A DNA stretch of 64,000 nucleotides from Neocallimastix sp. 'constans'. Taxonomy: Eukaryota. Every line of letters starts with the position of its first letter. Positions within the stretch are counted from its first letter, which is position 1. Both the position numbers and the translations under genes were made by a program. The stretch covers positions 62,001 through 126,000 of the forward strand of contig JBODTK010000156.1 of the NCBI GenBank assembly GCA_050613775.1. The letters run 5' to 3'. The notes below the pieces were generated by a model that was not told the origin of the DNA, did not search any database, and saw only the letters and a list, made by a program, of their open reading frames with translations. Shown piece after piece: positions 7,817-51,285 of the stretch.

Positions 7817-7821
7817 CATAA

Positions 7822-15121: not shown

Positions 15122-15164
<43 letters not shown>

Positions 15165-18847: not shown

Positions 18848-18882
18848 CCTTTGACAAAAAACACGAAACCTTCTCGAGACAA

Positions 18883-19646: not shown

Positions 19647-19694
<48 letters not shown>

Positions 19695-20373
19695 TAATAA
19701 AATTTACTAATAAGGAGAATCTGTATAGACAATCCTTATTCTCTTTTATTCTTTTTATTTAATTCCTTAATTTTGTGTTGGCCCTCGCTGGTAGGCTCAG
19801 ACGTAAGCCCTACATCTCAGCTCTTTCAGTTAAAATTCACTGAAAGAACAGCAACACAAAAAAAGAAAAAGAATTTTTAATTTTTAACTAAGTTTTCGTG
19901 TCCATATTTTTAAGGTAATACGATAAATATACTAGGAGCGGTTAGAGCTCATAAACAGAGTTTCGGCGGATATTAACTAGTTTCAGTAGGTTAGAAACTA
20001 TAGTCGTTAATTATTTGAATATAAACGGGCTTCAAAACCCTAGAGTGTAAAGAGAGTGTGGATTAAAAGAGAACCACATCCTACCAACCAACTTCAACAG
20101 TTCGGTGGTTGCTCTATTCGAATAAGCTCTGGCGAATAAGGAACTATAGTCACCGAAGGCTATAGGTTGGTCGTGAAGGTAAAGCGACATTAAAATATAT
20201 AGTTTTTAATTTTATTTTGAGGTCTAGTATATACCTCTAGTTAGTAGCTTTTGCCGGTTTTTTTTTTTTTTAGTTGTAAGGCATTAAAAGCGAAATTTAA
20301 ATTGTATTTACCTTAAATAAAAGTTCTTCAATAATTAAATTATCAAATAAATCTATTTTGAAAAAGCAAGAAA

Positions 20374-23240: not shown

Positions 23241-24476
23241 ACTTATATTTAGAAAATGAATCTATAATATTAATTATACAAAAATTTATATTTATTAATA
23301 TCAAATTTATTTCTATTAATATCAATATCAATAATCTTTATTATTTTTACTTATTAATATAAATATTATTTAAATTCATGTAACCTTATTATTAATAATG
23401 TATTTTTATGTTTATCATGTATTGAAATTTTACACCAAATAACTATCAAAATAATTTATATATTAAAATAATTAAATAAAATTTTCTTAGTATAGTTTAG
23501 CCTAGCTTTGAGATTCGTCTGGTATCCGAATCCTAGAGGAGGACCATGTTGTAAAATATTTAATAATTTGAATACGTATTTAAATGTAATGTAATGTAAA
23601 TTATTGTGGATAAAAATGTTTTCCAAATTTTTAATATAAATTTAAATGTATTCCAAATTATTAATTTAATTAATTTTCTCAAAAATGTATGACTAAATTA
23701 TTTGGAGAATTTACATCATTATTACTCACTTTGAATCATGAAACTTGTAAATTAAAAATAATTAGTCATGAAACTTGTAAATTAAAAATAATTAGTCATA
23801 AATTAGTTAAATTAAAGTAATCAAAGAAAAATTGCCTTTTCCGTTTGTTTACAAAAACTTGCCGTTTTGTTTATTTGTTTTTAGAAATATTAGATAGTTT
23901 TAAATAGTTTTTATATTAAAATAACTCATAAAAATTCATGTAATTTATTATTAAATGTAATTACAAATATATAATAATATTTTAGTTAGTTTATTACAAT
24001 CTATTCAATTTAAATTTTAATTTTCAAAAAGTATAAAAAGAGTTAATTTTCAACTATTGAACGATAGTTGGAAAATAGTATAGAAAATAGTATAGTTTAG
24101 AATAGTATAGTTTAGTATAGATAATATAGATAGTATAAATTTTATATTTTATTAATTAGTATTATAACTATTATTAGAATAGTTATCTTTTATAAAACAA
24201 ATTTTATTTTAAATTTTATTTTAAAATCTTAACTGCTAGTAGGCTTTCCGGTAAAGGACCCTACGGTACCCAGTTAAGTGATTGTTGATTTTAGAATAGT
24301 TAAATTCAACAAATAAGAAATATTAATAAAAGGATTTTTTTATAAAACAAAAAATTAAATTAGTTTTTTAGTTTTAGTGTTTTAGTTAATAATTAATTAT
24401 AGTGTTGATATAATAAAATAGTGTAAAATAAATTATAGTCTGTCCTCGCCGACCTAAGCTATTATTTTATTTTACA

Positions 24477-24487
24477 ATTTTCCAACT
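24477..24487 (+). promoter_or_regulatory. Self-priming PBS of G3
   Basis: ATTTTCCAACT is complementary to AGTTGGAAAAT (24066-24076), about 34 bp after TATAAAA. Confidence 0.85.
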
Positions 24488-24629
24488 CGTTAGATTAGTA
24501 TAGTTTACCTTTGTGTAGGATAGACTAGTAATAGTATAAAAATTTTTTTTTTTTTGAAATAATAATTAAAAAGTGGATTTAGTAATACTTTATAGTTTAA
24601 TTTATAGTTTAATAAATAATAATAATAAG

Positions 24630-27600
24630 ATGAATTACATAAATATCAACAATCAACATCCAGGAGCTAGGGGAGACTTTGACGCAGCCTCTGAAGCCAG
24701 CTCCATGGAAATAGAAAATGAGGTTGGTAATAACGTCAATACCAGGGCACGCCTCATTCCGAAACCAAAAGCATTCTCCGGAAGAAGAAACGAACTACCA
24801 GCCTTCCTTGGTCAAATCAACCGATATTTTAAGTACAATTTAGACGAAGAAGCTGCTGCTGATGACGAATTCAAGATTGATATTATAAGTAGTTATTTGG
24901 AGGGAAACGCTGCTGAATGGTTTGCTGATCTAGTTAAAGAAGAAAGTCCACTATTGGAAAATTACGAGAATTTTATTGACGCTTTGCAACAACGTTACAA
25001 ATCCTGTGCAAGTTCAGATGTCGCGAACAGTCGACTTACCAAGATACGTAGCCAACAATTTAGAACAATAGCCGAATACTGCAATCAGTTCGAGAAAATA
25101 GCCAGAGATTCATCATTTAATGACGAAGCTAAAATCCATTTTTTCATTGAGGGTTTACCAACAAGAGAAAAAGAAAGAACCAAACTAATTTATCCTAGAA
25201 TTAGAAGAATTAATGAACTAATTAATGTTGTAGCTGCTAATGCTGAAGAAGATCGTCGTGTTAACGGAAATGACCCAATGGATATAGATCAAAGAAGAAT
25301 TAGACCTTTTCGTAGGGATTTAGGATCAAGTCGTTACCAAAATAATTACCGAAGTAGCCAAAATTACAGGGATTCTTCACCAAAGAGGTCAACCAAACCG
25401 AAGAAGTGTTTTATATGTAAGAGCACAAGCAACTTAAAGGAAAACTGTCCCAAGCAACAGGACAAAATTAGAAAAAGAGAAAAGATCTTACAGATTAAAT
25501 TGAGCAAGAAAAGTTTAGCTCACACTTACAATGTTGTTTTTAAGTACAAAAATGGTTTTATTATGTCCGCAATTCTAGATACTGGCTCAGATCTTAATAT
25601 TATGGATAGAGCTACCGCCGATAAATACCAGATCCCAATACAACGAATCCGCCATGAGAAAAACGTTATCGGATTTAACGGAAATGGAACAATTCGTTAT
25701 GAAACCATTCCATTAACTATGGTCATGGGTCAACATATCGAAACCATTCAATTTTACATTTATAGTTTACCAAAAGGAATTTCGGTTATTTTAGGAAATC
25801 CATGGTTGAAGAAGCATTGCCCAACAATTGAATTTGATAAAGGTAATATCAGATTCAGTTCCCAATACTGCAAGAGGAATTGTTGTGCCACCGCTGAAGA
25901 TATTATGAGAAGAACAACTGAAGAAAAGAAGAAAAAAGATGAAATCCGCCGAAGTAAGATACAATTAGCTAGAGAAATTATTAATAATTATAATAATGTA
26001 TTAGATAGTTTAGATAATAATGATGTTAAAAAATTAGTCGATAATAAAAATAAATTATGTAGTAAAAAATCACGTAATATAAAGGCTATTATGAAAAAAG
26101 CCTTAGTTAAAAAAGAAAAATGTATTAAAAGAAAAGAATTAAATAAAGGAAAATTTGAAAATTATGCTTTCTGTTATGTTTTAAAAAATGAAAATAAAGA
26201 TAAAAGTGTTATTAAATGTGATTATAATAATGAAAGTGTTAAAGAAAATAAAAGTTTGGAAAGAATACCAAAACAATATGAGAAATTTAAAAATGTGTTT
26301 GATGAACAAGAGTGTAACGAATTACCACCACATCGTCCATACGACTGTAAAATTAGATTAAAGGATGATGTTGACTTATTTTATGGTCCTTTATATCCAT
26401 TAACGGAGGAAGAACGTGAAGCTTTAAAAGAATATATCAAAGAAAATTTAGAAAAAGGCTTCATTAGACCTTCAACATCTCCTGCTGGTGCTCCAATTTT
26501 ATTCGTTAGAAAAAAGGATGGAAGTTTAAGACTTTGTGTCGATTATCGAAGACTTAATGAAAATACTATAAGGGACTCCTATCCACTCCCTTTAATCACC
26601 GAGCTTTTTGACAGATTGAGAGAAGCTAAGTATTTTACTAAGTTAGATTTAAAATCAGCTTATAACCTGGTAAGAATACGTGAAGGTGATGAATATAAAA
26701 CAGCATTTCGAACAAGATATGGTCATTTCGAATATCTTGTTATGCCATTTGGTTTGAAGAATGCTCCAGCAACTTTCCAACACTTTATTAATGACGTTTT
26801 AGGAGAATACTTAGATGAATTTGCTTTTGCCTATATCGATGATATACTTATTTATTCTGAGACATTAGAAGAACACCGTACACATGTTAAGAAAATACTT
26901 AAGAAATTACAAGAAAGTGGTCTTTATGCAAAATTAAGTAAGTGTGAATTTGAAGTCCAGAAAACAACATTCTTGGGGCACGTAATATCCAATCAAGGAA
27001 TTTCCATGGATCCGGATAAAGTTAAGTCTATCTTAGAATGGCCAATACCAACTACAGTCAAAGAAGTACAATCATTTATAGGTTTATGCAACTACTACCG
27101 AAGATTCATCCCAAACTTTGCTAAAATTGCTAAGCCGTTACACAACTTAACAAGAAAAGATATTAAATATGAATGGACTGAAGAATGCTCCGTTGCATTC
27201 GAAACTTTGAAGAAACTTTTTACCATAGAACCTATTCTTGCCCATGCAGATCCAGAATTACCGTTTATAGTAGAGACAGATGCAAGTAATTTTGCAATTG
27301 GTGCCGTATTATCTCAAAGAAATAAGGATACAAATGAGTTACATCCAATTTGTTATTATTCAAGAGGTTTAACAAAATCTGAAAAGAATTATCCAATATA
27401 TGACAAGGAATTATTAGCTGTCAAGTGTGCGTTACAAGAATGGAGACATTACTTAGAAGGGGCTAAGCATCAATTTACAATTTATACCGATCATAAAAAT
27501 TTAACTTTTCCACGTAAACCTGAGTTGTTATCTCAACGTCAAATAAGATGGAACTTATTCTTATCTCGATTTGATTACAAAATACAATATAGACCAGGAA

Positions 27601-29198
27601 AAGAAGGTGGAAAACCAGATGCTTTTTCGAGAAGACCAGATTATGAAAATCAAGAAATAGATGATGAAAAAGAAACTTCAGCTTGTCTTACAATACAAGA
27701 AGCTACAGAAGATTTATGTTTAGTTGCAATTCAAGGGAACTTAAAAGATGAATTGATAAAAGAAATTAAAGATGATGAAGTCATACAAGAATTAATCAAG
27801 ATCAAAAAAGGAGAATCTACTTCTAATAATAAATATAAAAATAAAATGAAAGACTTTACTATTGACGAAGAAGGTTTATTATTATATAAGGGTTTAATTT
27901 TCGTTCCAAAGAAGATGAGAAATATTATCATTGCTATTCATCATGATAATCCAGTTCAAGGTCATTTTGGTATTCTCAAAACCAAAGAAATTATAAGTAG
28001 AAATTTTGTTTGGTTTAAGATGACTTCCGATATTGTTAAGTATATCGCATCATGCAAAACATGTGCTCAAGTAAAAGATGATCGCCACCGTCCTTATGGA
28101 TTACTTCAACCTCTTCCCACTCCAAAAAGACCATGGTCCTCAGTCTCAATGGATTTTATAACTGATTTACCTAAGTCAAGAGACAAAACAGTTATAATGG
28201 TCGTAGTTGATAGATTAACAAAGATGGCTCACTTTATTCCATTTAGGAGTATACCTACCACTCAAATCGCTGCTGATGTATTTTTTAGAGAAGTTTTTCG
28301 TTTACACGGATTACCAGAAGATATTACTTCCGATAGAGGATCTCAATTCACCTCCGAATTCTGGCAAAGACTTTGTAGTTTATTAGATATTCGTCAAAAT
28401 TTGTCAACAGCACATCACCCTCAAACAGATGGTCAAACTGAACGAGTTAATGGTATATTAGAACAATTTTTAAGGTGCTATATTAACAAAAGAAAAAATA
28501 ACTGGATGGACATTCTTCCTTATGCTGAATTCGCATATAATAACACATTACAACAATCGACTAATCAGACACCATTCTTCTCAAATTATGGTTTTAATCC
28601 AAAATTCAATCCAGTTATACCTGCTGATAGCAGAAGAACAAGTACCATTGACCATGTTGAACAAATAAGAAAAAACATGCAATTCCTCAAGAAAAATTTA
28701 GAAAAAGCTAAGGAAAGATATAAGAGATATGCAGATCACTTAAGAATTGTAGGACCAAAATTAAAAGTAGGTGATAAAGTTTGGTTAAAGCGTCCAGACT
28801 TACTTCCAAAAGGTCCTTCTAAATTGACTAACAGAAAACTCGGTCCTTTTAAAATTATTGAAAAAACAGGCCCTGTTTCTTATAAATTAGAATTGCCTGA
28901 TACTATTAAATGTCATAATGTTTTCCATATTTCAAACCTAGAACCTTACAATGAAAGAGAATTTGATGAATCAAGTACAAGTACTATTACTCGAATTACT
29001 TCGATCGCTACTGATACTGAAGGAAAGGAACCTTTGAAGATTGTTGCCGCTAAAGTTGTTAACAATAAACCTTTTTACTTTATGTTATGGAAAGGACTTC
29101 CAGCTACTGAATGTACTTGGTTGTCTGAAGATGAAATCACTGATCCTCAATTAGTTCAAGAGTTCAATAAAACAAATAGAGTTCCTTCTAGATTATAA
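24630..29198 (+). CDS. G3 Gag-Pol polyprotein (Gag, PR, RT, RNase H, integrase, chromodomain-like)
   Basis: Uninterrupted [55 protein letters not shown]. Confidence 0.97.
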   Translation: MNYININNQHPGARGDFDAASEASSMEIENEVGNNVNTRARLIPKPKAFSGRRNELPAFLGQINRYFKYNLDEEAAADDEFKIDIISSYLEGNAAEWFADLVKEESPLLENYENFIDALQQRYKSCASSDVANSRLTKIRSQQFRTIAEYCNQFEKIARDSSFNDEAKIHFFIEGLPTREKERTKLIYPRIRRINELINVVAANAEEDRRVNGNDPMDIDQRRIRPFRRDLGSSRYQNNYRSSQNYRDSSPKRSTKPKKCFICKSTSNLKENCPKQQDKIRKREKILQIKLSKKSLAHTYNVVFKYKNGFIMSAILDTGSDLNIMDRATADKYQIPIQRIRHEKNVIGFNGNGTIRYETIPLTMVMGQHIETIQFYIYSLPKGISVILGNPWLKKHCPTIEFDKGNIRFSSQYCKRNCCATAEDIMRRTTEEKKKKDEIRRSKIQLAREIINNYNNVLDSLDNNDVKKLVDNKNKLCSKKSRNIKAIMKKALVKKEKCIKRKELNKGKFENYAFCYVLKNENKDKSVIKCDYNNESVKENKSLERIPKQYEKFKNVFDEQECNELPPHRPYDCKIRLKDDVDLFYGPLYPLTEEEREALKEYIKENLEKGFIRPSTSPAGAPILFVRKKDGSLRLCVDYRRLNENTIRDSYPLPLITELFDRLREAKYFTKLDLKSAYNLVRIREGDEYKTAFRTRYGHFEYLVMPFGLKNAPATFQHFINDVLGEYLDEFAFAYIDDILIYSETLEEHRTHVKKILKKLQESGLYAKLSKCEFEVQKTTFLGHVISNQGISMDPDKVKSILEWPIPTTVKEVQSFIGLCNYYRRFIPNFAKIAKPLHNLTRKDIKYEWTEECSVAFETLKKLFTIEPILAHADPELPFIVETDASNFAIGAVLSQRNKDTNELHPICYYSRGLTKSEKNYPIYDKELLAVKCALQEWRHYLEGAKHQFTIYTDHKNLTFPRKPELLSQRQIRWNLFLSRFDYKIQYRPGKEGGKPDAFSRRPDYENQEIDDEKETSACLTIQEATEDLCLVAIQGNLKDELIKEIKDDEVIQELIKIKKGESTSNNKYKNKMKDFTIDEEGLLLYKGLIFVPKKMRNIIIAIHHDNPVQGHFGILKTKEIISRNFVWFKMTSDIVKYIASCKTCAQVKDDRHRPYGLLQPLPTPKRPWSSVSMDFITDLPKSRDKTVIMVVVDRLTKMAHFIPFRSIPTTQIAADVFFREVFRLHGLPEDITSDRGSQFTSEFWQRLCSLLDIRQNLSTAHHPQTDGQTERVNGILEQFLRCYINKRKNNWMDILPYAEFAYNNTLQQSTNQTPFFSNYGFNPKFNPVIPADSRRTSTIDHVEQIRKNMQFLKKNLEKAKERYKRYADHLRIVGPKLKVGDKVWLKRPDLLPKGPSKLTNRKLGPFKIIEKTGPVSYKLELPDTIKCHNVFHISNLEPYNEREFDESSTSTITRITSIATDTEGKEPLKIVAAKVVNNKPFYFMLWKGLPATECTWLSEDEITDPQLVQEFNKTNRVPSRL

Positions 29199-30160
29199 GT
29201 CGCTCAGGGGCTCGACTTAAACAGAGGGGCATGTAAAATATTTAATAATTTGAATACGTATTTAAATGTAATGTAATGTAAATTATTGTGGATAAAAATG
29301 TTTTCCAAATTTTTAATATAAATTTAAATGTATTCCAAATTATTAATTTAATTAATTTTCTCAAAAATGTATGACTAAATTATTTGGAGAATTTACATCA
29401 TTATTACTCACTTTGAATCATGAAACTTGTAAATTAAAAATAATTAGTCATGAAACTTGTAAATTAAAAATAATTAGTCATAAATTAGTTAAATTAAAGT
29501 AATCAAAGAAAAATTGCCTTTTCCGTTTGTTTACAAAAACTTGCCGTTTTGTTTATTTGTTTTTAGAAATATTAGATAGTTTTAAATAGTTTTTATATTA
29601 AAATAACTCATAAAAATTCATGTAATTTATTATTAAATGTAATTACAAATATATAATAATATTTTAGTTAGTTTATTACAATCTATTCAATTTAAATTTT
29701 AATTTTCAAAAAGTATAAAAAGAGTTAATTTTCAACTATTGAACGATAGTTGGAAAATAGTATAGAAAATAGTATAGTTTAGAATAGTATAGTTTAGTAT
29801 AGATAATATAGATAGTATAAATTTTATATTTTATTAATTAGTATTATAACTATTATTAGAATAGTTATCTTTTATAAAACAAATTTTATTTTAAATTTTA
29901 TTTTAAAATCTTAACTGCTAGTAGGCTTTCCGGTAAAGGACCCTACGGTACCCAGTTAAGTGATTGTTGATTTTAGAATAGTTAAATTCAACAAATAAGA
30001 AATATTAATAAAAGGATTTTTTTATAAAACAAAAAATTAAATTAGTTTTTTAGTTTTAGTGTTTTAGTTAATAATTAATTATAGTGTTGATATAATAAAA
30101 TAGTGTAAAATAAATTATAGTCTGTCCTCGCCGACCTAAGCTATTATTTTATTTTACACA

Positions 30161-30733
30161 TGTAACGAAACTCATAACTAGTAAATTAGTAACTATGGTT
30201 CAATGGTAAGTTACCATAACCATCGGGCTGAACCCTTAGGGTTCGACACCCACTCTTTCCAAATTTTAATAACTTTTTATTTATTATAACTAGAATATTA
30301 AAGAAATTACTAGTGTTTATCGGTTAAACAATTGAACCGATAAAACTAGAAAAATCTATTTTATTAATATTTTTTATCATTTTTTATCTAAGATTCATTT
30401 TCTAGAAAGAAAACTTGTTTTCTTTAATTTTCTTTAATTTTCTTTTATTTCTAATAATTACTAATAACAACTGATAACTTAAAATAATTAATTTTCCTGA
30501 AAAACTATAAATAGGTGTAAAATTTCATAATAAAATATTTTTACTTGTGCTTTTATTAATTAATTTTAAAGTAATTTAAAATATTACAATGATTAATTAA
30601 TAAAATAATAATTTATATTTTTACTAATAAAAAAACTTATTTTAATAAAACATATTTTGAATTACTTTAGTGTCGAGAACCTTTTGTGTAAAAAACCTTA
30701 TAACAATCTTAAGTAACATTAAGATTTGTTACA
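30161..30733 (+). mobile_element. T1 3' LTR with Pol III-type A box (30196-30206) and B box (30240-30250)
   Basis: TGGTTCAATGG...GGTTCGACACC; direct repeat of 5882-5897 plus 18282-18837. Confidence 0.92.
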
Positions 30734-37287: not shown

Positions 37288-38269
37288 TGTAAAGATGTGA
37301 TTATCCCGATCACATTTTAAATTAAAAAATTTTTCTTGTGTAATTCAAAAATGTAAATTATTCTTTGATTTATAAAATAATAAGCAAAGTAAATAAATCA
37401 TATGAACTAAATTTTTGAATTATATTCTTTAAGCCACAAGATAAATTTTTAATGTAATAATTTTTATAAAATTTAATTCTGAGAAAATTATTGTTGTAAA
37501 ATAATTTAAAAGAATTAATTAAAGTATAAAACAAAATAAATTAATAATTTATTTTGTGAAAATTAAGTTTTAAAATTTAATCATGACTCCTTTAACATTG
37601 TTTTTAAATCGAAAATAAATAAAGACTTTACTTATAATATTAAAATAATAAATAGTGTAACGTGCTTCTATTGTAACGGCGGGACGTGGTATAGAAACAC
37701 AGAAAGGAGAAAACTCAATAGGTTTACACTATCTGTATAAATAATTCGTTTTATTAAAAAAGATTTTTTATTAATTATAAAATTTAAAGTAATTATTAAT
37801 ATTAATCAACAAGGTAATATTTCGAATTACTTATACGTTAATTATTATTAATAAAAGCACGAAGAAAAATATTTTCATTCGTGAAGTTCGCACTATTTAT
37901 ACTTTTAACGGAAAAACAGTTTTAACATGTAAAAATAATTTTAAAGAAATATTTAGAAATATGTTTGTAATAATTAATAATGTAAAGTTTCTAGAATATA
38001 GATTTTAATTGATGAAAATGAATCTTATCGAAAAAAGAATAAAATAATTTATATAATAAGAATTTCTAAATTCATTTCGGTTGAATTACGAACCGAAGTA
38101 TTCTTTAACTTTCTATAATTTATACAGAAAGAATATTCAAGAAGATATTATTAATAATTAATAAAATAATTATTTATGCAAAATGGGTTGAGGTGCGAGT
38201 CAAACCCATGAAGTATTGGTCATGGTCAATGTAACTAACCATTGAACCAAAGTTCTAATTTTACTAACT

Positions 38270-39615
38270 TGGTAATGTAATAATTCTATTAAGAACTAAC
38301 TCAAAATAGAATTATTAACTACAACTTAACGACTAATTCATTAAGTTGAGAAAATAAAATAAAATAAATTTTTTTACCTTTAGAGTAGAGTTTATTATAA
38401 AATTAATTATAATAATAACACAAAAATGAAAATAAGGTTAAATAAGAAAGGGTTTTCTAATCTTAACAAATCTCTTATCTAGGAAAAGATTAAATAGAAA
38501 AACCTAGATAAGTTTTCGATCGATATTCTATCCATATCGATCATCGCATTAATTAAGTAAAACCGATTACTTCTAAAAAGTAATTGGAAAAAATCTTAAT
38601 TAACCGATTTTCCAATCTAATCTAATGATCGAAAATAAAAGAATAAAATAATAAAAGATATTTCGATCATATAATTTATCCTTATATTAAAAATATAAAA
38701 TTAAATAGTTAATAAAATACAGAATACATTATAAAATACAGAATAAAATACAATACAAAATACATTAGTTACAGTAGAGAATTTAACATATTGTAAATAT
38801 ATTATTTAAAATTAATTAAATAAATTTTGTTAAATTAATGAATATTTAAAATTAAATTAAATAAATTTAATAAATATTATATGTAATTAAATAAAGTTAT
38901 AGTTATAATAACTTAACTAAGAAAATATAATTATTTGTTAGCAAATAATTATAGATTCTTACAGGTAATAAGTTTAAGGTATTATTTATTTTATTTTCTT
39001 AAACTTATTTTATATCGTTTTACCTTGTTTTATTTTAACAAGTTTTACCGATATTTAATATTTAAATTTACTTAATTATTTAAAAAAAAATGTTTTATTG
39101 AAAATTTATATAATATTTAATCTATATATTAAATATTATAATTTTTTTATAAATAATTAAAAATAGTTAAATACTATAATATAAATAATATAGTTTATAA
39201 CTTTATATATATTTGTTATAATAATAATTTTTATTTAATATTTTTTTATAGTTGATTATACAACGTTGAGAAATATTTTTAATTGTTATAATTCATTATT
39301 TTTCTAAATAAATTCACTTAATAAATTTCATAATTATTTCTCAAAAATTTTATAAGTTAATTTATATGGAACTAATTATTCCATATAAAAAATTTTTATA
39401 TTTATATTATTATTATAGTTGGTGTAACTATATTTTCCAATCAAATGTATATAAATATTATTATTAAATAATATTATTATAATAATAAAAATTATTATAA
39501 TTATTTAATATTATGAATAAGATTATTATTAAGTTATTACTATTTAATTATTTTAATATTTAAAATATTAAAAAATCTTTTACTATTTCTTAATATATAT
39601 TATTATTATTTATCA
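38270..39615. mobile_element. Putative solo LTR X (TGGTAA...TTATCA)
   Basis: TG..CA termini like W and G2; interrupted after 6 bp by an S1 LTR; single copy. Confidence 0.55.
38276..38963 (-). mobile_element. Solo LTR, S subtype 1 (internally deleted)
   Basis: Copy of 2048-2910; TSD GGTAA. Confidence 0.9.
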
Positions 39616-39616
39616 T

Positions 39617-40594
39617 TGGTAAAGAATGAATTAATAACCTTTATTTTATTATTAATAATTTTTTACTAAATTGTACTTTCCTATATTCTTGATAACCTAA
39701 ACTTAATAATAAAATTTAATTTATTTTGATATAAATTAATTTTAACTTGTAAATAATGTAAATCAATTTTAATTAATTACTTTATTGTTATATTATTAAA
39801 TATATGTATATATTAAAATACAATTGTAAATATTAAAATTATACTTTTAAGATACTAAATTATTAAAATTATTAATTAAATATTATTATAAAAATTATTA
39901 TAAACTATTAATATTATAAAATTATTAAAATTATTAAATATTATTATAAAAATTTATATATTATAACTATTAAATATTATTATAAAATTATTAAGATTAT
40001 TAATTAAATTTATTATTAAAAATTATTATTAAAAATTATTACTTATTATAAAAATTATTATTAAATATTATCAAATTTATTAATTAAATATTATAAAAAT
40101 TTTATTTTATTTTGAAAATAATTACAAGTATTATTTAAAATAATTAAAGATTATTAAATTTATTATATTAATCTTTAAAAACAATTTCTTTAACTTAAAA
40201 ATATCAAAGAAAATAGTAAAACTATTTTCTATATATATTTATTTTATAATTATTTTTAATTAAATTATATTTGAATATTATATTATTATATTTATAAAAA
40301 TTAAAACAAAAATGAATTATTGATATAAAATTAATTCAATAATTCTATAAAATTACTTAAATTATAAACAACTAATTATACTTTAAATTTATAAAAAAAT
40401 ATAAATATTGTAACAATTTCTTAAAAATTAAATATGTGTACTTTAAATAATAAAATTTTATATTAATAAATAATAAATAATTTTTAATAAAAAGAAATTT
40501 TTTTTTTTTTTTTTTTTATTTAAAATCAAAGCAGGGTAATACCCGTCCCCCCTGCTTGATTTTAAATCCATACGAATCAACCCCGAGTCTACCA
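39617..40594. mobile_element. Solo LTR W3
   Basis: TGGTA...TACCA; inverted copy of W2. Confidence 0.85.
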
Positions 40595-40601
40595 AACTGA
40601 A

Positions 40602-41580
40602 TGTAAGAATCTATAATTATTTTTAACAAAATAATTATATTTTCTTAGTTAGGTTATAATTAATATAACTTTTATTTAACTCATATTTCATTTATACACC
40701 TAATTATAATTAATAATTTATTTAATTATATATTAAAATTTTATTTAGTTTAATATTAAAAATTTATTTAATTAAATAATTTTTATACATTTAAAATAAT
40801 ATTAAATTTATTTAATTATTCACTTAATTATTAAATTTATTAGTTTTAGTTTTCTTTCACTTATTAAATCATAAACTAAAACACTATTCTGTATTCTATC
40901 ATGTATTCCGTATTGTATTAATCATGTATTTTATTATTAATGTATTGTTTTATATTTTTTATGTAAAGTTCTATAAAATAGAACTAAATAGATTAAATTT
41001 TAAATTTTATGATCTAAATAATTTTCATTATTTTATTCTTTTATTTTCGATCATTATATTAGATTAAGTAATCGGTTAATTAAGGTTTTTCCAATTACTT
41101 CTTAAAAGTAATCGGTTTTACTTAATTAACGCGATGATCGATATGGATAGAATATCGATCAAAAAACTTATCTAGGTTTTTCTTCTAGTCTTTTCCTAGA
41201 TAAGAGATTTGTTAAGATTAGAACCCCTTTTGACTTTAACCTTATTTTGACAAAAAAGTATAAATAAGGCTCTTGAGTTCTCTTTGAGAAATCAAGAGTT
41301 ATTATTATAACAATTATAATATAATAATAATAATAATAGTTTTAACATTTAAAATTTCTAATAAATAATAAAACAAATTATTTTAATAAAACAGATTTTA
41401 TAATTAAAACTTTTCTTTATCAATTTTAGTGTTTCGTCTATTATAATTCGTTATAATAAACTCGATAATTAGAAAGAACCATAGATAAGTATGATTCTTT
41501 TCTAACCCTTTAATATTAGCAGTTAGAGCTAATATTAATGATTAATAATTTAATTATAATTTTTTAATTAAATTATTACA
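40602..41580 (+). mobile_element. Solo LTR, S subtype 2
   Basis: TSD CTGAA; copy of 7822-8820. Confidence 0.9.
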
Positions 41581-41587
41581 CTGAATG

Positions 41588-42531
41588 TGTAAGAATCTAT
41601 TATTATTTTTAAATAATTATATTTTCATAGTTAAAGTTATAATTATAACTTTATTTAATTATATAATATTTATTCATTTAAATATTATTAATAATTTATT
41701 TAACTCCATATTAAATATTCATTGATTTAATACAACAAAATTTATTTAATTAATTATTATTCATACATTTATAAATAATTATAGTTTATTTAATTATACA
41801 TTTAATTATTAAATTTATTAATTTTAGTTTATTTATTTAATTAAATTGTAAACAAATATATTATGTATTCTAATATGTATTTTAATAATGTATTCTGTAT
41901 TTTGTTTATTAATATCATTATGTTATTTTCCTTATTTGTAAATTTATAATTTTATGATCGAAATATCTTTTATTATTTTATTCTTTTATTTTCGATCAAT
42001 TACATTGGATTAACGAATCTGTTAATTAGGGTTTTTCCCAATTACTTCTTAAAAGTAATTGGTTTTACCTAATTGATACGATGATCGATATGGATAGAAT
42101 ATCGATCAAAAATCTTATCTAGGTTTTTCTCTCTAATCTTTTCCTAGATAAGAGATTTGTTAAGATTAGAAAACATTTTTTAATTTAACCTTATTTTTCA
42201 AAAAAGTAAAAATAAGGCTCTTGAATTCTCTTTGAGAAATCAAGAGTTATTATTATAACAATTATAATATAGTAATAACATTAATAAATATTTTATATTT
42301 CCATTTTAATAAAGCAAGTTTTAATAAAACAAATTTAAAAATAAAACAAAATAAAATAATCCTTTCTCTTGACAATTCTGTGTTATTATAATTAGTTATA
42401 ATAAACTCTTTCTTATAAAAGATAAGTATATTTATCTTTTTTGCTTTCTCAATTTAATAATAATTATTATTTAATTATTAAGTTGTAGTTAATAATTTAA
42501 TTATAATTAATTTTATAATTAAATTATTACA
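41588..42531 (+). mobile_element. Solo LTR, S subtype 3
   Basis: TGTAAGAATC...TTACA, TSD GAATG. Confidence 0.88.
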
Positions 42532-43707
42532 GAATGTTAAAGAAGAAGCAAATATTGTTAATTTGGTCTCAAATCTAACAAATAATGTTGAAATTACAAC
42601 TGAATTAAATTATTAAAAACAAAATAATTAATAAAAATTTATAATTCATTAATTATTCTTTAAATTTTATTTATTTTATAATATTATAAGTTATTTGATC
42701 ATCTTAGGACCAGCTTAGGCCTACTGATTCTAATGATATCATATTTAACTTAAATATTATTAATAAATAAAATATTTATTCAACATGAATCATTTGGTCA
42801 TGTCATCCTTGATTCATAAATTAATGTTTATGTATTAATTTATGTTATATTGATTTAATTAATTATTAATTATTAATTACTATATTAAATATTTAAATTT
42901 AATATTATATTATATATATTAGCTAATATATTAGATTAAAAAATATAATTTATTTATATTAAACATATTCTTATACTAAATATTATTATTATCAATTTAT
43001 ATTATTATTATCAATATTCTCAAACCTACAAAGTATAAAAAGAAAATTCAAATTTATCTTTTTGTTCTTTGTAAGGTTATAGTTAACCTATTATAATATA
43101 ACTATATATTTTTATTAATAAATAAAAATTTTTTATCATATCAACCCAATTATTAGTTTTAATTAAGTGTTAAATTAACAAATTTAACTTTATAACTCTT
43201 TTATTTTAGTAATTTATATATATCTATATAGTTATATTATATAGATATATCAACCTGATTCAGTCGTTAAATTCGTTCTGTCTACTTTTTAACAATAACC
43301 TTACCCAAGAAAAGAGAATCACCTTGATATGTCCCTTTATAATCACCTATCTACCCATTATCTGAAGAAGAAAATAAAGTTTTAAAAGAATATATAGAAG
43401 AAAATTTAAAGAAGGGATTTATTAGACCTTCTGAATCTCCAGCTGGTGATCCTGTCTTATTTCAAAAAAAGAAAGATGGTTCTTTAAGATTGTGTGTGGA
43501 TTACAAAAAGTTAAACGCTGTTACCATTAGAAATTCATATCCTCTTCCACTTATTAATGATATTATTGAAAAGGTTAAAGGTGCAAAATATTTCGCAAAA
43601 TTAGATCTAAGATCTGCCTATAACCTAATTCGTATAAAAGAGGGGGATGAATATAAAACAGCTTTTCGAACTAAATATGGTCATTACGAATATCTCGTAA
43701 TGCCTTT

Positions 43708-44481
43708 TGTAAAGATATTATTAATATCTTTATAAATTTTAATTAAATTTAATCATAAATTTAAGTAAAATTGAAATAAATCTATTAAAAATCACGTGTA
43801 TAAAATTATTGCAAATAATTTTAAACAAAACTTCGACTTCTTCCCAATCATATTAATAAATTAAAAATTTCTCTTGTGAAACTAGTAATTGAAAATCATT
43901 TCTTTTTATGTAATTTAATTTAAATAATAAGAGTTAAGGTTTTTTACAAGATAAATTAACAACATGAAACTATGCAATTAGTCATGTTGAAACTTGCGGC
44001 ATTTTATGCTAAAATCATATTAAATAATTATGACAACTTTTATATTAATTTTAAATAGAAAATATAATAAGAATTTATTAATAATATTTAAATAATAAAT
44101 AAATAATAAATGAGCTCGATTGAAATTGTTTATATTTATTTTAGTTATTAATTATAATTCTCTTTATTTAGTAATAGTTAATTATTTATTATTAGTTTAG
44201 GTTAGTATTGTTTTTAAATAAATAGTTAGATAATATAATTCAATAGGAATTATATATTCTAAATGTAATAAGATAAAAATATAAATAGTTAACCAAATTT
44301 CATGTATTTTAATCGATGTAATTGTTATTAACGATTTATTGTTAATAACACTAATAATTAATAAAGATTATTTTAAAATCTAAATATAATAAAACTTATT
44401 TGTTTATAAAACATTTTTGTGTTATTTAGTGTTATTATAATTTTTGACTTATAATCTATTTTTTAAAATCAAAACTTTATA
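43708..44481 (+). mobile_element. Solo LTR (TGTAAAGAT family) in the G4 RT
   Basis: TSD CCTTT; TG...TA end. Confidence 0.88.
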
Positions 44482-46813
44482 CCTTTTGAGTTGAAAAATG
44501 CCCCAGCCACTTTTCAATCATTTATTAATTCTGTACTCAGACCTTATTTGGAAAAAAGTGTTATTTTATATTTGGATGATATTTTAATTTATTCTGAGGA
44601 TTTGGAAGAACATCACAAACAAGTAAGAAGTGTATTACAAACTTTAATTAATAATAATTTATACGCAAAATTAGAAAAATGTGAATTCGATAAAGAAAAA
44701 GTTGAATTCCTAGGTTACATTTTATCTGGTGATGGTGTATCTACTGACCCAAAGAAAATTAAATCTATAGAAGAGTGGCCAACTCCGAAAAATATTAAAG
44801 AAGTACAACGATTTTTAGGCTTATGTAATTACTATAGGAGATTTGTAAAAAATTTTGCAAAAATAGCTAAGCCTCTCCATAATTTAACAAGAAAAAATAC
44901 AAAATTTATTTGGGATACAAATTGTGGAAATTCATTTAAATTATTAAAAAGTAAATTAACTACTTCTCCAGTACTGCATCACCCAGATGTAACTAAACCA
45001 TTCATAGTAGAATGTGATGCAAGTAACTATGCTATAGGTGCTGTTTTATCTCAGAAAGATGAAAATAATAAATTACATCCTGTTGCTTACTTTTCAAGAA
45101 GTTTACAAGGCTCCGAAATAAATTATACCATTACAGAAAAAGAGTTATTAGCTATTAGAGATTCTTTCTTAACTTGGCGACATCTTTTACTTGGTGCAAA
45201 ACATAATTACTGTCTATACTGACCATAGAAATTTAATCTATACTTTAGGAGGAAAAGTTGGTAATCAAAGACAGCATAGATGGCACTTATTCTTTCAGGA
45301 ATATGATTTCCAACTTATATATAGACAAGGAACTAAAAATGGGAAACCAGATAGTCTTTCAAGAAGACCTGACTATATGAAGAATAACGAAGATATTAAA
45401 CCAGAAAATATATTAGATATTAAAAATGTAAAAGAAGTTCCCTGTTTTATAGGAATTATGAGTAATTTACTAGAAAAAATTATTGATGCTATTAAAGAAG
45501 ATGCTACTGCTGAAGATATTAAATTATACTTTAGTGAAAACAATGTTAAAAATAATTATGCTTATAAACCATTTAGGAAAATGGAAAGATTTAAAATAAA
45601 AGATAATATTATATTATATAACAATTTAATTTATATTCCTGAATCACTTAGATTAGAAATTTTAGAAAAATATCATGAAAAACCCACTTCTGGACATTTT
45701 GGTATAAGAAGAACTTTAGAACTAATTACAAGAAACTTTTGGTGGCCAAAAATACATGAAGATGTTACAAGTTATGTTAATTCTTGTGAATGTTGTGCAA
45801 GAAACAAGGTTAATAGACATAAGAAATATGGTCTTTTACAACCTTTAGATACTCCCGATAGACCTTGGAAGTCTATAGAAATTGATTTCCTATGTGGTCT
45901 TCCTTATTCTAAAGGATACACCGTTATTATGGTAGTTGTTGATCGTTTCTCTAAGATGATTCATTTAATTCCATTTAAACAAATACCTGATGCCAAACAA
46001 ACTGCCAAAGCTTTCATTACAAATATATTTAAACTACACGGATTGCCTTGTGATATGTATACAGATAGAGGATCTCAATTTACAAGTGCTCTTTGGAAAG
46101 AAGTAATGGAATATTTAAACATTAAATCAAAAATCGCTACAACTGACCATCATGAAACAGTTGGTCAAGTTGAAAGATGTAATTCTTTTATTGAAAAATA
46201 TTTAAGAGCTTACTCAAGATCATATTATCATGATGATTGGATTGAATGGATTCACCTTGCTGAATTTGTTTATAATAACTCCATTAATGAATCTACAAAA
46301 GAAACACCCTTCTTTATTAATTATGGGTTTCATCCATCTATAGATGAATTTTTCTTATTACCTGATATTGATACTAATAATAAAATTATTAAGGACTTAA
46401 GTATGAACTTTAATCATATTAAAGCTGTTTTATTAAGGTCAAAAGAACTATATAAAATACACGCAGATAAAAAGAGAATGCCACCTCCAATATTTAAAGA
46501 AAATGATTTAGTTTGGATACAAGCTCCTCCATCACTAAATATCGAAGATAGTTCAAAGTTAGCTCCTTGTAAATATGGACCATATAAAGTAATAGATGTT
46601 CTGAATAATCATAATTATAAAATAGATATTAAAAGGTCACCTTTTCCAAAACATCATCCTATATTCCATGTTTCGGAGTTAGAACCTTTTATTCCAACAC
46701 CTCAAAAGTTTTTAAAAAGAAGAACTCATGATGAATCTGTTAATGATATAATCGAAATCTCAGGATTTAGAACTAATTATAAAAAGAATCAATATGAATA
46801 CAGAATCAGGTAT

Positions 46814-47593
46814 TGTAAAGATTTAATAAAATCTTTAATAATTAATTATTACATAATTAATTAATGTAATAAAATTACATAAATTTATGATTTACGTATA
46901 TGAAAATTAATTATAAATTTATGTAAACTTTTCATAAAGGAAAAATTATTATTTAAATAATTTTGGATAATAACTTAAATCTAAATAATTTATTTAAGTT
47001 AGTTAATTTAGTTTAGTTTATTTAAAATAGTTATTCTATTTAATTTAGTTAATTTAGTTAATTTAGTTTAGTTAGTTTAAAATACTTTAAAATTAATTTC
47101 GGAATAGTTTTAAATAGTTAAAATTAGTTTAAATAGTTTATAAAAATAGTTTTAAATTGTAAATATATAAACATTAGTATTAATAATATTTATATAATGA
47201 ATATATAATAAATGAGTTGTTATTGAATTTAATTATTATTGTAAATAAGTTGAAAGTTTATTGAATTAATTATTGTTTAGTTTAGTTAATTATTATTTAA
47301 TAAAATTATTAATAAATATTTTGTTTATAAATAAACAGTAATATATGTAAATTAGATAGAAATAATATATTATAATGTAATAATGAAAAAATATAAATAC
47401 ATGTAAATTTCTATAATTAAATCGATGTATTAGTTATTGACTATATGATAGTTAATAACAAAAAAGAGATTTAATTTTTTTTAATTAATAAAGATTATTT
47501 TATTTAAAAAAAAACGAATTTTTATTACGTGTTTTTTTTATTTTGGTGTTAAAATTTGTTATTTGTAATCTGTTTCTGATAGAACTCTTTACA
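46814..47593 (+). mobile_element. Solo LTR in the G4 chromodomain region
   Basis: TSD GGTAT; homolog of 32412-33163. Confidence 0.9.
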
Positions 47594-47734
47594 GGTATAA
47601 ATATAGAACTGCTTACAATTGGGTTCCTTCAGACGAAGTTGAAAATAACCCCCGAAATCAAAATATTTATTTACAATATTTACAAAATGATTTCAATAGC
47701 TTATAACTAAAATGATAATAATAATAATAATATT

Positions 47735-47773
<39 letters not shown>

Positions 47774-50303
47774 GAAATTTTGTTTTTTATTATTTGCTTT
47801 TAAATTTTATTTTATTATTATCAATTTTTCAGTCAAATTTCAATTTCAAAATTTCGAAATTTTCAAAATTTTCAAAATTCAAAAACATAGCTATGTTACA
47901 CTTACATCTATCTATCAATTTATAATCCAATTTTATTCATAAATTCATTAATTATTATAATTTTCAATTTTTTTAAAGTTAATGCATAAAATTAAAAATT
48001 GAAATTAAAATTTCAAAATTTCAATTTCAAAAATTTTTAATCAAAAACATTTAAAAATGGTACCATCATATTCTTAAACATCAATTTTTATAGCAAAATT
48101 TTAATTTTATTAAATTTTAGAAATTTCAAAATTTCAATGAAATGGTCACTTATAAAGGGTTTCCTTTTAAAATTTAAAAGGACTCAAGTGGCCTTCCTCC
48201 TTTATAAATTAAAAAATTTAGTCCTCCTTATCGTTACACAAAAATCGTCTTGAATCCGATTTTTATAGGAGGGCATTGTTGAAATTATAACTGAATTGAA
48301 ATCTCAATTTCAGTTATTCACATTTCAATATACATTTAATTAATAATTAATATAAATTCTTATTTAATATTTAAAGAATTATCTTAGGCCTAATAATTCT
48401 GAAAATATTAATAAATAAGATTTATATTAATAATTTCAATTATTTACATATGATATAAAACAAATATGTGTAGTAACATATTTGTATATTTAATAATAAT
48501 TATTAAATATTAAATTTATATCTTTTTGATAATAATTATTTTATTTTATTTTATTTCAATATGTATTATAATTATAATAATTATAATACTTTATTTCATA
48601 TAAAATTTATATAGTTCTATATATTAGAATATATAATTAATATATTACCTATTTCTTATAAATAGATTAAATTATTTATATTTGAAATAGAGAACTCTCT
48701 TGTAAAATTTTAGGAATTAGAATTATTATTTTAATTGTACGAATATTATAATATTATTAATAAAATTTACTAAACTACCATAATTTTAAAAACCCACTGC
48801 TTATAAATTATTGCACATAAAAGTCCCGCATATCACATATGACGTCACATGTATTTATTTATATTATGTTTATATATATGTTTATATCATATATATTAAT
48901 TACTATTTTTAATTATTCAAATTAATTATACAAATTAAATTTATTTAATTATATTAAATATTTTAAACATATCGATATTGTTATTATTTTAATATTTTAT
49001 TAATATTCATTTTACTATATTATTATTATCTTATAATTAAATACTATTATTATGTAACTTACAAAGTATAAAAGAAAGATGTAAAAATCTATCTTTTATG
49101 TTCTTTGTAAGGTTATTGTATTTACAATAATTATATACTAATAATTCAATAAATAAATATTTTCATAAATCCTTCAAAGAAATTATTATTTAAAATATTC
49201 TTAGATATTAAGTGTTTAAATGACTTAACTATTTATCTTATATTATTTTAATTATATTATTATTAATTAATTATTGTTGGATTATTAATATATAATTCAA
49301 CATATTAACCTAGTAACGTTATTAATCATAAAACTATTTTATATCTTAATTTTAACAAATAACTTATCCACAAATTAAACTATTTGCCTTCCTTATTGTA
49401 TGGAACTTTCCTATATTCTACTATAAATTAAAATTGAATTATTTCTTAATAAATAATATATTACTTATATTAAATAATTTTTATTTATATATTTCTTATT
49501 TAAAATTATTATATTATTATTGAAATGTTAACAAATTATCAATATATTTTTTTTTATTAATATTTTTATTTTATCAATTTATTATTGTCAAGTTAATTAA
49601 AAATCTAGATAGTTTTTCTTTAACCAATAGTTATTCATTGTATTAATAATAAAAATTAATTTCTAAATAATATTACTAATACATAATAATACAAAAAAAA
49701 AAAAAAAATAAAATAAAATAAAATTATATATTATTAATATATGTTTATTATAATCCATAATGTTATATTTTTAAGAATTAATTATAACAATTATATTGAA
49801 TAATTTAAAATTAATAATATTTTACACATAAATGAAGGATTTAGTAAGTTATAATTACTAAACCACATTAGTAAATTCTGCAAAATTGATAAAATTATGT
49901 TTAAAATATATTAATAATACATTAATAATTAATTAGGATAAATTTTTATATATAATAGAAATACTTAAATTAAAATAAATTTATTAGATATAATTTAAAA
50001 ATTTGAATTATTATTAAAAGAAATTAAAAATAAGAAATGGCTTTCCCATTTCTAATTAATTGTAAAAGTATAAAAAGAGATAGTTTAGAAAAAAAAAATA
50101 ATAATAATAATAATCATGTAATAAATTATAATAAATAAATTTTAATAAATATTTTTTAATAAAACAAAAATTTTCTTTTATTTTTATTATTGTTTTAATT
50201 TTATTTATAATTTTTGAATAATTTTTATAAAAACCCCGAACCAAACCATGAAGATTTCGTTACAAATAGATAATAAATGTACTTAATTTTAATTATTTAG
50301 TAT

Positions 50304-50953
50304 TGTTAAGATAATAACTGAATTTCAATTCAATTTCAATTTCAATAATTCAGTTATTGGAATTTCAATAAAAATAATAATATAATAATTATTATTAAAT
50401 TAACTTTATTAAAATATTTAGGAATTAGTCTAGGCCAACTAATTACTAAATATTATTAACATATTGAAATTAATATATATTAAATAATGTAAACACGTGA
50501 TTGTCATATTAAATTAATTTCTACATATTATATTTTAATTATAAAATATAATATTTAGCTAATATTATATTCTTATATTTTATTTATATTAAATATTTAT
50601 ATTATTATCTTAGTTTATATTATCAATATCAAACTTATATTAATACTATTACATATTCATATTAATAATTAATATTTTAATAATTAATTATTTTATATAA
50701 ATACATGTTTAAATCTTTTGATTAATCCTTTGTAGGATTATTGTAATTTAAATTATAGTAATAATTATATAAAATAATAATGTAATAAAATATTATTAAG
50801 ATTAAATAAAATTTATATTTTAAATAAAAACTTAATTATAAAATTTACTAATAACAATATGTAAATAAAAAGTAAAATTAAATTATTAATTAATTACTAT
50901 AATTTGGCATCTTGACCTAATCGTTAAGACCAAATTATCTAAAAACTTTAACA
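50304..50953. mobile_element. Solo LTR Z2
   Basis: TGTTAA...TTAACA, TSD AGTAT. Confidence 0.9.
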
Positions 50954-51285
50954 AGTATTTAGTTTAATTAATAATTATATTTTTCTAAATTTAGCTATAG
51001 TTTATAAATTTATTATTTAATAAAATTCATTAGGATAGTTTTATATTAAAATATATGTAATTTAAATAAAATAATATATTATCAATGTATTTAGGAAAAG
51101 TACAAATAGAAGATACTTTTCACTTTTTTTCTCGATGTAATTGTTATTGAATAAATAACTATGAACAAATAACTATTAATAAATATTAAATATTAATAAA
51201 ATATATTTTTAATAAAAATTTTTTTTAATAAAATAAAATTTATTGTGTCTTATTATTGTAATCTATTTTAGTATTTTCTTTTACA

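Follow-up and report, generated by a model that had tools for sequence, protein, structure and literature searches.

How did six retrotransposon LTRs come to lie end to end inside another LTR, that of the T3 copy of retrotransposon T, with their cuts gathered 16-21 nt ahead of its A box? The stack occupies about 37.6-50.3 kb of the window, by which we mean the whole 64-kb stretch of DNA analysed; T copies from outside it were taken from metagenomes. Judging from the sequence, we regard it as quite probable that the inserts reflect Ty3-like targeting of a putative Pol III promoter carried by T. Six LTRs would thus be piled at one spot most likely because a mobile motif was mistaken for a real tRNA gene, and it is likely that one retrotransposon here seeds landing pads for others.

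The history of the locus can be read by removing the inserts from the A-box side, which yields an exact 4- or 5-bp target duplication at each of the seven steps and restores T3 as a 629-bp solo LTR with TG...CA ends, its own exact 5-bp duplication outside, and collinearity with five other T LTR heads (Table 1). This confirms the proposal of the first-pass annotation that the two T3 pieces are one LTR, with bounds now at 37656-38268 and 50249-50264; the 5' piece of about 21 bp that it described is rejected in favour of 16 bp, since 50244-50248 belong to the end of the V LTR and match the V1 LTR end. The elements and their spacers (T, AACTGAA, CTGAATG and GAA) lie at the positions claimed. The duplications of X, W3 and V, previously called imperfect, are exact 4-mers (CCAA, AGTT and TTCA, read on the minus strand), two of which take in terminal bases of the adjoining element, and S1 does not sit 6 bp inside X; its cut spans the X end and the X duplication. 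The duplications of S1, S2 and S3 are exact 5-mers (TTACC, TTCAG and CATTC), and the S3, X and S1 cuts all span the end of the preceding element. Two random local sequences would agree by chance in 1.8% of cases for 4-mers and 0.7% for 5-mers. T3 itself lies in a Y-lineage solo LTR, which in turn sits within a Copia RT region with Copia RT remnants on both sides.

Table 1. Positions of the T3 stack, its host, the putative Pol III cassette and other T copies within the window
Feature	Position	Strand	Details
Host Y-lineage solo LTR, holding T3 and G2out	37288..51285	+	TGTAAAG...TTTACA ends; exact 5-bp duplication GTTAT
T3 solo LTR, nt 17-629	37656..38268	-	joins 16-bp head; 62-65% identical to T1, T2b, L001 and L002
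Pol II TATA-like box and 10-mer complementary to T primer-binding site	37851..37901	-	TATA at LTR nt 384; 10-mer 41 nt further
T4 run, candidate Pol III terminator	38180..38183	-	LTR nt 102; putative function
B box (GGTTTGACTCG)	38196..38206	-	T3
A box (TGGTTCAATGG)	38239..38249	-	T3 LTR nt 36-46
S1 solo LTR, last insert	38276..38963	.	5-bp duplication TTACC; edge 21 nt from A box; 99.4% to S0 over 538 bp
X solo LTR, V-like ends, terminal CA changed	38966..39615	-	4-bp duplication CCAA; edge 19 nt from A box
W3 solo LTR, V-like ends	39617..40594	+	4-bp duplication AGTT; edge 16 nt from A box
S2 solo LTR	40602..41580	.	5-bp duplication TTCAG; 98.8% to S4; edge 18 nt from A box if earlier than W3
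S3 solo LTR	41588..42531	.	5-bp duplication CATTC, including V terminal CA; edge 20 nt from A box if earlier than S2 and W3
V solo LTR, first 51 bp	42535..42585	+	duplication TTCA; 19 nt from A box under the full order given in the text
G block, composite G-lineage chromovirus	42586-49357	+	nested 51 bp inside V solo LTR; 5-bp duplication
G5 LTR with self-priming site	42586-43294		within G block
Y solo LTRs splitting G-block pol remnants	43708-44481 and 46814-47593
G3 LTR	48277-49357		G block; preceded by polypurine tract
V solo LTR, remainder	49363..50248	+	continues V past G block
T3 solo LTR, nt 1-16	50249..50264	-	first 9 nt invariant across five T LTRs; outer duplication exact
G2out solo LTR in Y flank	50304..50953	+	duplication AGTAT; edge 69 nt from A box of empty T3
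T2 whole element	5882..30733	+	duplication GATAA
T1 solo LTR	15580..16179	+	intact boxes; head free of inserts
T2 gag-PR-IN-chromodomain ORF, without RT-RNase H	20415-23240		941 aa; internal region 4.7 kb
K element in T2	23550-30158		32 nt from A box of 3' LTR, in neither tier

Of 720 removal orders, 60 are valid, and all lead to one and the same empty site. V is forced to precede S3, and W3 to precede X, which precedes S1, each later insert lying on the A-box side, so that the order of events, earlier described as uncertain, is fixed for these steps; the full order V, G, S3, S2, W3, X, S1 is the one we infer. All three forced steps run toward the A box, which places the anchor on that side and not at the T 5' end, displaced by kilobases. 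The distance from cut to A box is independent of order for W3 (16 nt), X (19), S1 (21), V1 (18) and G2 (67), and under the full order comes to 19 nt for V, 20 for S3, 18 for S2, 19 for W2, 18 each for Z and S, and 69 each for G and G2out.

Ten of these inserts make up a first tier: spread over two T LTRs, they entered unrelated sequences at 16-21 nt upstream of the A box. The second stacked copy, the T2 5' LTR, was entered by W2, Z, S and V1 at 18-19 nt, and in both stacked LTRs, which are 62% identical, the first cut falls after LTR nt 16. The duplicated sequences (TTCA, CATTC, TTCAG, AGTT, CCAA and TTACC in T3; CATAA, CATAA, ATAA and TA in T2) have no common motif. That they vary within and between stacks at a constant A-box distance bears out the earlier argument for positional, not sequence, targeting. 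As a rough bound, six uniform inserts would fall in any 6-nt window of a 629-bp LTR with a probability of 5e-10, and the control inserts, five of the Y lineage and three of T, all lie at other distances. The tier-1 stack is found in two of seven T LTRs, with inserts in none of the three metagenome copies.

Three G-lineage inserts form a second tier, cut 67-69 nt before the A box in the unrelated sequences of a V, a V1 and a Y LTR; the value for the G block holds if V was the nearest insert at that time. The same geometry recurs in a fourth G cut, 45 bp from the W1 end. G, an LTR element, has SH3 and a tail that resembles a diverged chromodomain; its block in V retains pol remnants (RT, RNase H, integrase and SH3) and lacks gag; a single intact element was rejected here, since the G5 and G3 LTRs are only 61% identical and the block is thus composite. 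The V LTR is collinear with the V1 LTR across it (67% over 955 columns). Neither this second tier nor the coding nature of T figured in the first-pass annotation.

The sequences facing the inserts are conserved in the T lineage. The A box lies at the same LTR position in five of six T LTRs and at nt 35 in the sixth, the A-to-B spacing is 43-44 nt, and the first T4 falls at LTR nt 102-113 in all six LTRs examined; these three elements are kept among T copies only 62-65% identical. Invariant columns across five T LTRs number 7/11 in the A box, 8/11 in the B box and 59/260 downstream. A pattern search of the window finds A and B boxes only in its four T LTRs. The stacked copies carry changes, two in the A box of the T2 5' LTR and one in the B box of T3, which has T where six other T LTRs have C (GGTTCGA). 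The cassette was also considered as a tRNA and rejected: none of six T LTRs gives a cloverleaf at ARAGORN thresholds of at least 85%, there is no Rfam tRNA match, and the consensus fold is two hairpins. ARAGORN at 85-90% makes many calls on the window, most needing long introns and treated as noise; no tRNA gene was found in the 64 kb, Rfam gives only chance matches on the window and L001-L003, and a bacterial promoter scan gave nothing informative.

The carrier, by the standard of its coding sequence, is a chromovirus lineage of Ty3/gypsy, with an anaerobic gut fungus as its likely host. Its intact relative L001 has a single 1396-aa gag-pol ORF with Pfam matches to Retrotrans_gag, RVT_1, RT_RNaseH, rve, SH3_Tf2-1 and Chromo (the protease is unscored), and the T2 integrase is 91% identical to that of L001. 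The first 10 nt downstream of the T2 5' LTR match the complement of an LTR motif 41 nt past the TATA, a self-priming and not a tRNA-primed layout. T as a TRIM was therefore rejected, given self-priming, the 4.7-kb internal region with its 941-aa ORF in T2 and the 1396-aa gag-pol of L001. The TGG starts of W, V and X, considered as tRNA primer sites, are LTR termini. With a TATA box, a self-priming site and many internal T runs, the genomic RNA of T is likely to be made by Pol II, so the cassette likely serves T otherwise, the likely roles being a short two-hairpin RNA or a chromatin barrier.

A plausible mechanism is as follows. TFIIIC would bind the T boxes and place TFIIIB upstream; the V/W/X lineage (4-bp duplications; non-chromodomain Ty3/gypsy) and likewise the S/Z LTRs (5-bp duplications) would integrate at about the transcription start. 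As the promoter is internal it would survive each insertion, so that a newcomer would land in the gap left between the A box and the preceding insert, duplicating 4-5 bp afresh, and later LTR-LTR recombination would reduce the elements to adjoining solo LTRs. For the G lineage the anchor is likely the same one, with the cut just past the predicted TFIIIB. V1 is a full Ty3/gypsy element without a chromodomain, S, Z, W and X are known here from LTRs alone, and X appears V-like from its ends and duplication length; W3 is 88-90% identical to W1 and W2 by BLAST.

The A box starts at tRNA position 8. Taking this value, 16-21 nt from the A box equals 9-14 nt before the mature tRNA 5' end. Ty3 cuts 1-4 bp before the start site, itself about 10 bp before the mature end, with corresponding values of 1-10 bp for Tj1 and 13-33 bp for DGLT-A; Ty3 also uses the tRNA relic ZOD1 and is blocked by box mutations (PMC5911963). 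As both stacked T copies have box changes, these would either post-date the inserts or be tolerated.

These box changes are also among the observations that favour a different anchor, some other property of the T head such as hairpins or a cruciform, a nucleosome-free patch or another protein, with the box likeness a relic of a captured SINE or tRNA. Two hairpins are predicted in five of five copies (z-scores of -1.7 to -2.9), no tRNA is called in the cassette by ARAGORN or Rfam, and plant LTR elements have a weak palindrome preference (PMC6911290). However, hairpin covariation is weak (2/18 pairs compensatory, with an unfavourable covariation term), and T3 lacks the second hairpin as formed in the others, yet took six hits. 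The box position, the spacing and the T run are consistent with a type 2 promoter, and Ty3, Tj1 and DGLT-A have the same offset as tier 1; we consider this alternative unlikely. Counted against the Pol III reading, besides the box mutations and the possibility that the hairpins are the anchor, are the occurrence of the tier-1 stack in only two of seven T LTRs, the insert-free outside copies, S0 and S4, two S inserts near which no A box is seen, the 2-bp duplication (TA) of W2, and K at its 32 nt.

If instead LTR ends or short duplicated spacers were preferred, the first hit would be chance and later ones would nest at junctions. The S3, X and S1 cuts at preceding ends would fit, S2, S3 and V hold unforced places in the order, so that some could have entered at the distal junction, and S0 and S4 share one site in two Copia copies where no A box is visible (the S0 stack leaves the window and S4 is shortened on that side). 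Such a preference does not account for a first cut after nt 16 in two diverged T LTRs, for duplications with no shared motif or for forced steps that are all A-box-proximal; moreover, no G cut falls at an element end, those in V, V1 and W being 45-51 bp inside and that next to T3 being 39 bp outside it, and the ends of Y and other solo LTRs in the window bear no stacks. We hold it improbable. It is very improbable that misassembly or recombination between repeats, and not serial integration, produced the array. While the region is nearly all repeat and the G block, with its missing gag and unlike LTRs, shows that some rearrangement happened, misjoins do not make a nested set of seven exact duplications, nor those that flank T3 and the host Y LTR, and the T2 stack follows the same logic.

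Targeting of a Pol III promoter in T, the reading we prefer, has known counterparts for each of its halves. Ty3 (S. cerevisiae), Tj1 (S. japonicus) and DGLT-A (Dictyostelium) are Ty3/gypsy elements that insert at Pol III start sites (PMC5911963; PMC4600332; PMC5006619; bioRxiv 10.1101/2021.07.27.453949). As proposed here, their insertions fall within a narrow stretch immediately upstream of a promoter with internal A/B boxes, independently of sequence and sparing the promoter, and V1 is like them in being Ty3/gypsy without a chromodomain, which does not imply membership of the Ty3 clade. In contrast, the proposed target here is a cassette within another retrotransposon's LTR and not a host gene, and several lineages, with 4- and 5-bp duplications, use one site in stacks of up to six. 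For the second tier, G cuts about 60-62 bp before the mature end on the tRNA scale, resembling the fixed larger distances upstream of Pol III genes of the dictyostelid TRE5 (40-54 bp from the mature end) and NLTR-B (39-64 bp; PMC5911963 Table 1); those are non-LTR elements, whereas G is an LTR element. In the same table the only tRNA-linked chromovirus, Skipper-2, inserts downstream.

The cassette in turn recalls Helenus, Cassandra and Ajax (TRIMp3), which have tRNA-like A/B boxes in the LTR without a normal tRNA, 5-bp duplications and solo LTRs (PMC10886601). TRIMp3 are non-coding, at most 1263 bp long and tRNA-primed, and their Pol III promoter is thought to make template RNA, whereas T has gag-pol with a chromodomain, a Pol II TATA box and a self-priming site. 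The excerpted text of that paper mentions no Neocallimastix, Piromyces or Anaeromyces and no nesting, and notes tRNA-like sequence in 'not a few' Repbase LTRs, describing TRIMs only. Foamy viruses are coding retroelements with a Pol II LTR whose U3 also holds a short Pol III unit of two hairpins, with A/B boxes in some; these cassettes of mammalian retroviruses are 111-128 nt with long stems and yield miRNAs via a dumbbell pri-miRNA, unlike the putative T unit of about 85 nt with short stems, and the passages available from that source do not describe them as insertion targets (PMC6950176). The combination, Pol III targeting of an LTR-borne cassette, was not found in the literature searched.

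Targeting of tRNA genes is viewed as a safe-harbour strategy at fixed host genes. Here the target is likely itself mobile, so that the T family would make new hotspots wherever it inserted while competitors would break its own 5' LTR; the transposons would be interacting by way of a host transcription complex. LTR-borne Pol III cassettes would no longer be confined to non-coding TRIMs and retroviruses of mammals but would include a fungal chromovirus with coding capacity. The locus further suggests Pol III targeting in a group of fungi that diverged early, and it points to an LTR element whose offset is like that of TRE5. At base resolution, the stacks preserve the sequence in which the families were active, and the three integrases, each with its own offset at a single promoter, would allow targeting mechanisms to be compared directly. 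A more far-reaching account, which we offer tentatively and think rather more doubtful than not, is that an autonomous chromovirus of a fungus maintains a functional Pol III gene in its U3, for a short two-hairpin RNA or a TFIIIC barrier against silencing; that other retrotransposon lineages, three or more in number and among them an LTR chromovirus at about -60, take it for a tRNA gene, each at its own offset; that such mobile promoters seed retrotransposon pile-ups in the genomes of anaerobic gut fungi; and that hit copies escape by box loss.

The T pattern has no matches in viral contigs or GTDB genomes, and T was not found in three MAGs, which gave only weak AT-rich DNA matches and protein matches of 26-30%; the V1 and G protein patterns have two and seven matches in viral contigs, none confirmed. 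Outside gut-fungal-type sequences, V1 integrase relatives are about 30-35% identical. Alignment of V1 against GTDB genomes gave 10 loci, with no tRNA in 9/10 scanned, no A/B box in the five examined and uninformative flanks; five are close relatives (47-55%), lying on short contigs within prokaryotic MAGs.

Seven inserts were taken out singly from the A-box side of T3, the solo LTR of the T chromovirus lineage at about 37.6-50.3 kb, and at each step, reading in the direction of T3 (minus strand), an exact duplication was found. What remains is a 629-bp T3 LTR with its own exact 5-bp duplication, sitting inside a Y solo LTR that also has one of 5 bp. The first-pass annotation had placed the elements and spacers correctly and rightly joined the two outer pieces as one LTR; its 5' piece of about 21 bp is in fact 16 bp, the next five bases being the end of V, and the duplications of X, W3 and V that it called imperfect are all exact after stepwise peeling, their seeming imperfection arising because S3, X and S1 each interrupted the terminal bases of the preceding element. 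The uncertainty it attached to the order of events holds in part: 60 of 720 removal orders are valid, all giving one identical empty site. In each of them V entered ahead of S3, and X after W3 but ahead of S1; the place of S2 is free, as are those of V and S3 with respect to W3. The order G2out (a G LTR in the Y flank), V, G, S3, S2, W3, X, S1 is favoured because the order-dependent distances then fall in the same two windows.

Features of the window; duplications of individual T3-stack inserts are exact and read in T3 direction
Feature	Position	Strand	Duplication	Remark
S1			TTACC	
X			CCAA	
W3			AGTT	
S2			TTCAG	
S3	boundary 41588		CATTC	
G block			TTATT	
V			TTCA	
Third stack	1-2910			S0, U, W1 and a G LTR cut 45 bp from W1 end; in Copia linker, runs off left edge
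T2 LTR pair	5882-5897 + 18281-18837; 30161-30733			
T2 ORF	20415-23240			
Motif before T2 polypurine tract	23512-23546			
Element K	23550-30158			LTRs identical; one 1542-aa gag-pol with chromodomain; self-priming site
36-bp tandem repeat	31942-32319	minus		in frame, inside 290-aa open frame
W LTR inverted repeats	40525-40565; 1289-1335; 5928-5972			GC-rich
S-adenosylmethionine synthetase gene	52535-54993	minus		intron-containing; last exon matched by Pfam; 1.3 kb from nest
Copia copies	58008-58830; 2048-2910			
Perfect inverted repeats	58845-58890			after cut-short S4

All distances run from the A box of the tRNA-gene-like cassette (A box, B box, T run) near the T LTR 5' end to the closer edge of each duplication. 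Irrespective of order, W3, X and S1 lie at 16, 19 and 21 nt, and V1, the full V element in the 5' LTR stack of the whole element T2, at 18 nt; provided that no other insert stood closer when each arrived, V falls at 19, S3 at 20, S2 at 18, W2 at 19, Z at 18 and S at 18 nt. A second tier is formed by G inserts, namely G2 in V1 (67 nt, independent of order), the G block in V (69 nt, provided that nothing stood closer than V at that point) and G2out (69 nt if T3 was then empty). 'Lineage' is used loosely for G, as its LTRs have a common 5' head yet are only ~60% identical to each other. Because G5 carries a self-priming site of its own and is unlike G3, the G block may combine two insertions at a shared site, fused by a deletion. 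Thirteen of the 18 S, Z, V, W, X, U and G inserts in the window stand at tier distances from a T A box, four belong to the third stack, which leaves the window, and the last, S4, is truncated on the side expected to hold an anchor; neither distance applies to any of the five Y or three T inserts. Element K, inserted across the polypurine tract/LTR border of the T2 3' LTR at 32 nt from the A box, represents a possible third offset (n=1). V, W and X have similar LTR ends and 4-bp duplications, in common with V1, a Ty3/gypsy element without chromodomain; S and Z are present as LTRs only. The inverted repeats near one end of W LTRs are unusual in an LTR of 10% GC. Retrotransposon contigs 47-55% identical to V1 (L004-L008) were assigned to prokaryotic MAGs (Bacilli, Methanosphaera) and likely represent eukaryotic contamination.

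A degenerate cassette pattern matches three of the four window T LTRs, none in 100 shuffles, and three metagenome contigs (L001-L003), where every match is a 3' LTR, empty of inserts, preceded by a chromovirus pol and by one shared polypurine tract. L001 encodes gag, RT, RNase H, integrase, SH3 and chromodomain in a single 1396-aa ORF, its integrase 91% identical to that of T2; about 30 further clusters (64-90% identity) are among the matches listed. The A box starts at LTR nt 36 in five of six T copies (nt 35 in one), and in six T LTRs the B box follows 43-44 nt after it and a T4 run lies at nt 102-113; the five copies that extend far enough have a TATA box at nt 346-384. Among five T LTRs, most pairs of which are 62-65% identical, invariant columns number 7/11 in the A box, 8/11 in the B box, 5/26 just upstream and 59/260 downstream. 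That the cassette is a tRNA was ruled out by ARAGORN and Rfam; its predicted fold is two short hairpins, with weak covariation. The 10 nt after the T2 5' LTR are complementary to an LTR stretch 41 nt past the TATA box, the self-priming layout that part of PMC4600332 describes for Tj1 and Tf1; because of this layout and the 21 runs of at least five T in the 4.7-kb T2 interior, Pol II likely transcribes the T genomic RNA. The T2 ORF is without RT and RNase H, an in-frame loss of ~425 residues against L001. A short hairpin-like motif directly before the polypurine tract (same place in L001-L003) is nearly unchanged in 4/4 T elements despite a diverged surrounding 3' UTR. At L003 1-146, a T1-type LTR is 99% identical to the unstacked window copy T1 over 119 nt, then switches to unrelated sequence.

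In the stacks, insert after insert entered unrelated sequences at a single offset from some feature on the A-box side, which upholds and extends the earlier reading of positional rather than sequence targeting. This targeting is quite probably Pol III-directed: the anchor would be TFIIIC/TFIIIB on the T cassette, and because insertion upstream would leave the internal promoter untouched, the site could be used repeatedly and the stack would grow one way. The A box of a tRNA starts at position 8, and on this scale a mature 5' end would lie 9-14 nt downstream of tier 1 and 60-62 nt downstream of tier 2. Pol III start-site targeting is already known; passages of PMC5911963 give 1-4 bp for Ty3 and 1-10 bp for Tj1 before a start site ~10 bp upstream of the end of mature tRNA, and 13-33, 40-54 and 39-64 bp for DGLT-A, TRE5 and NLTR-B. 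According to part of bioRxiv 10.1101/2021.07.27.453949, TFIIIB occupies roughly -15 to -32 relative to the start site, so tier 2 would lie beyond it. Boxes resembling those of tRNAs are described, in the sections consulted, in LTRs of non-coding TRIMs (PMC10886601) and in U3 small-RNA cassettes of foamy viruses (PMC6950176); the Helenus paper (PMC10886601) also mentions further Repbase LTRs with tRNA-like parts. T differs from Helenus in size, coding capacity and primer, as that portion of PMC10886601 gives them. A literature search covering article listings and some main texts, with few subscription journals, found neither a coding chromovirus with such a cassette nor such an LTR cassette as a landing pad.

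Against Pol III targeting stands the state of the boxes, damaged in 2/2 stacked T copies and 0/5 unstacked: the T3 B box has T where C is otherwise invariant, and the stacked T2 LTR has two A-box changes. The T2 LTRs differ at 5/573 positions; four of these fall in the first 68 nt, and two alter the stacked copy's A box. Either the promoters of stacked copies lost function once the final insert was in place, or box changes are tolerated there; Ty3 requires intact boxes and TFIIIB, and a tRNA relic is also usable by it (PMC5911963, in part). Stacks occur in 2/7 T LTRs overall and 0/3 outside the window, where contigs are short, may be collapsed repeats and were found by an intact-box pattern, which would bias toward empty copies. 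For S0 and S4 no A box is visible within the window, and the W2 duplication is only 2 bp. S0 and U have exact duplications, and since no T head stands in front of the third stack within the window, a different Pol III unit may serve as its anchor. At one shared site, the two Copia copies (96.6% identical to each other) each hold an S LTR, and these two LTRs belong to separate subfamilies with 73% BLAST identity.

The window has 16-30% GC per 4-kb block and is nearly all retrotransposon. The host is probably an anaerobic gut fungus, since the closest named relatives of two of its integrases bear the JGI label Orpsp1_1, which belongs to such a fungus.
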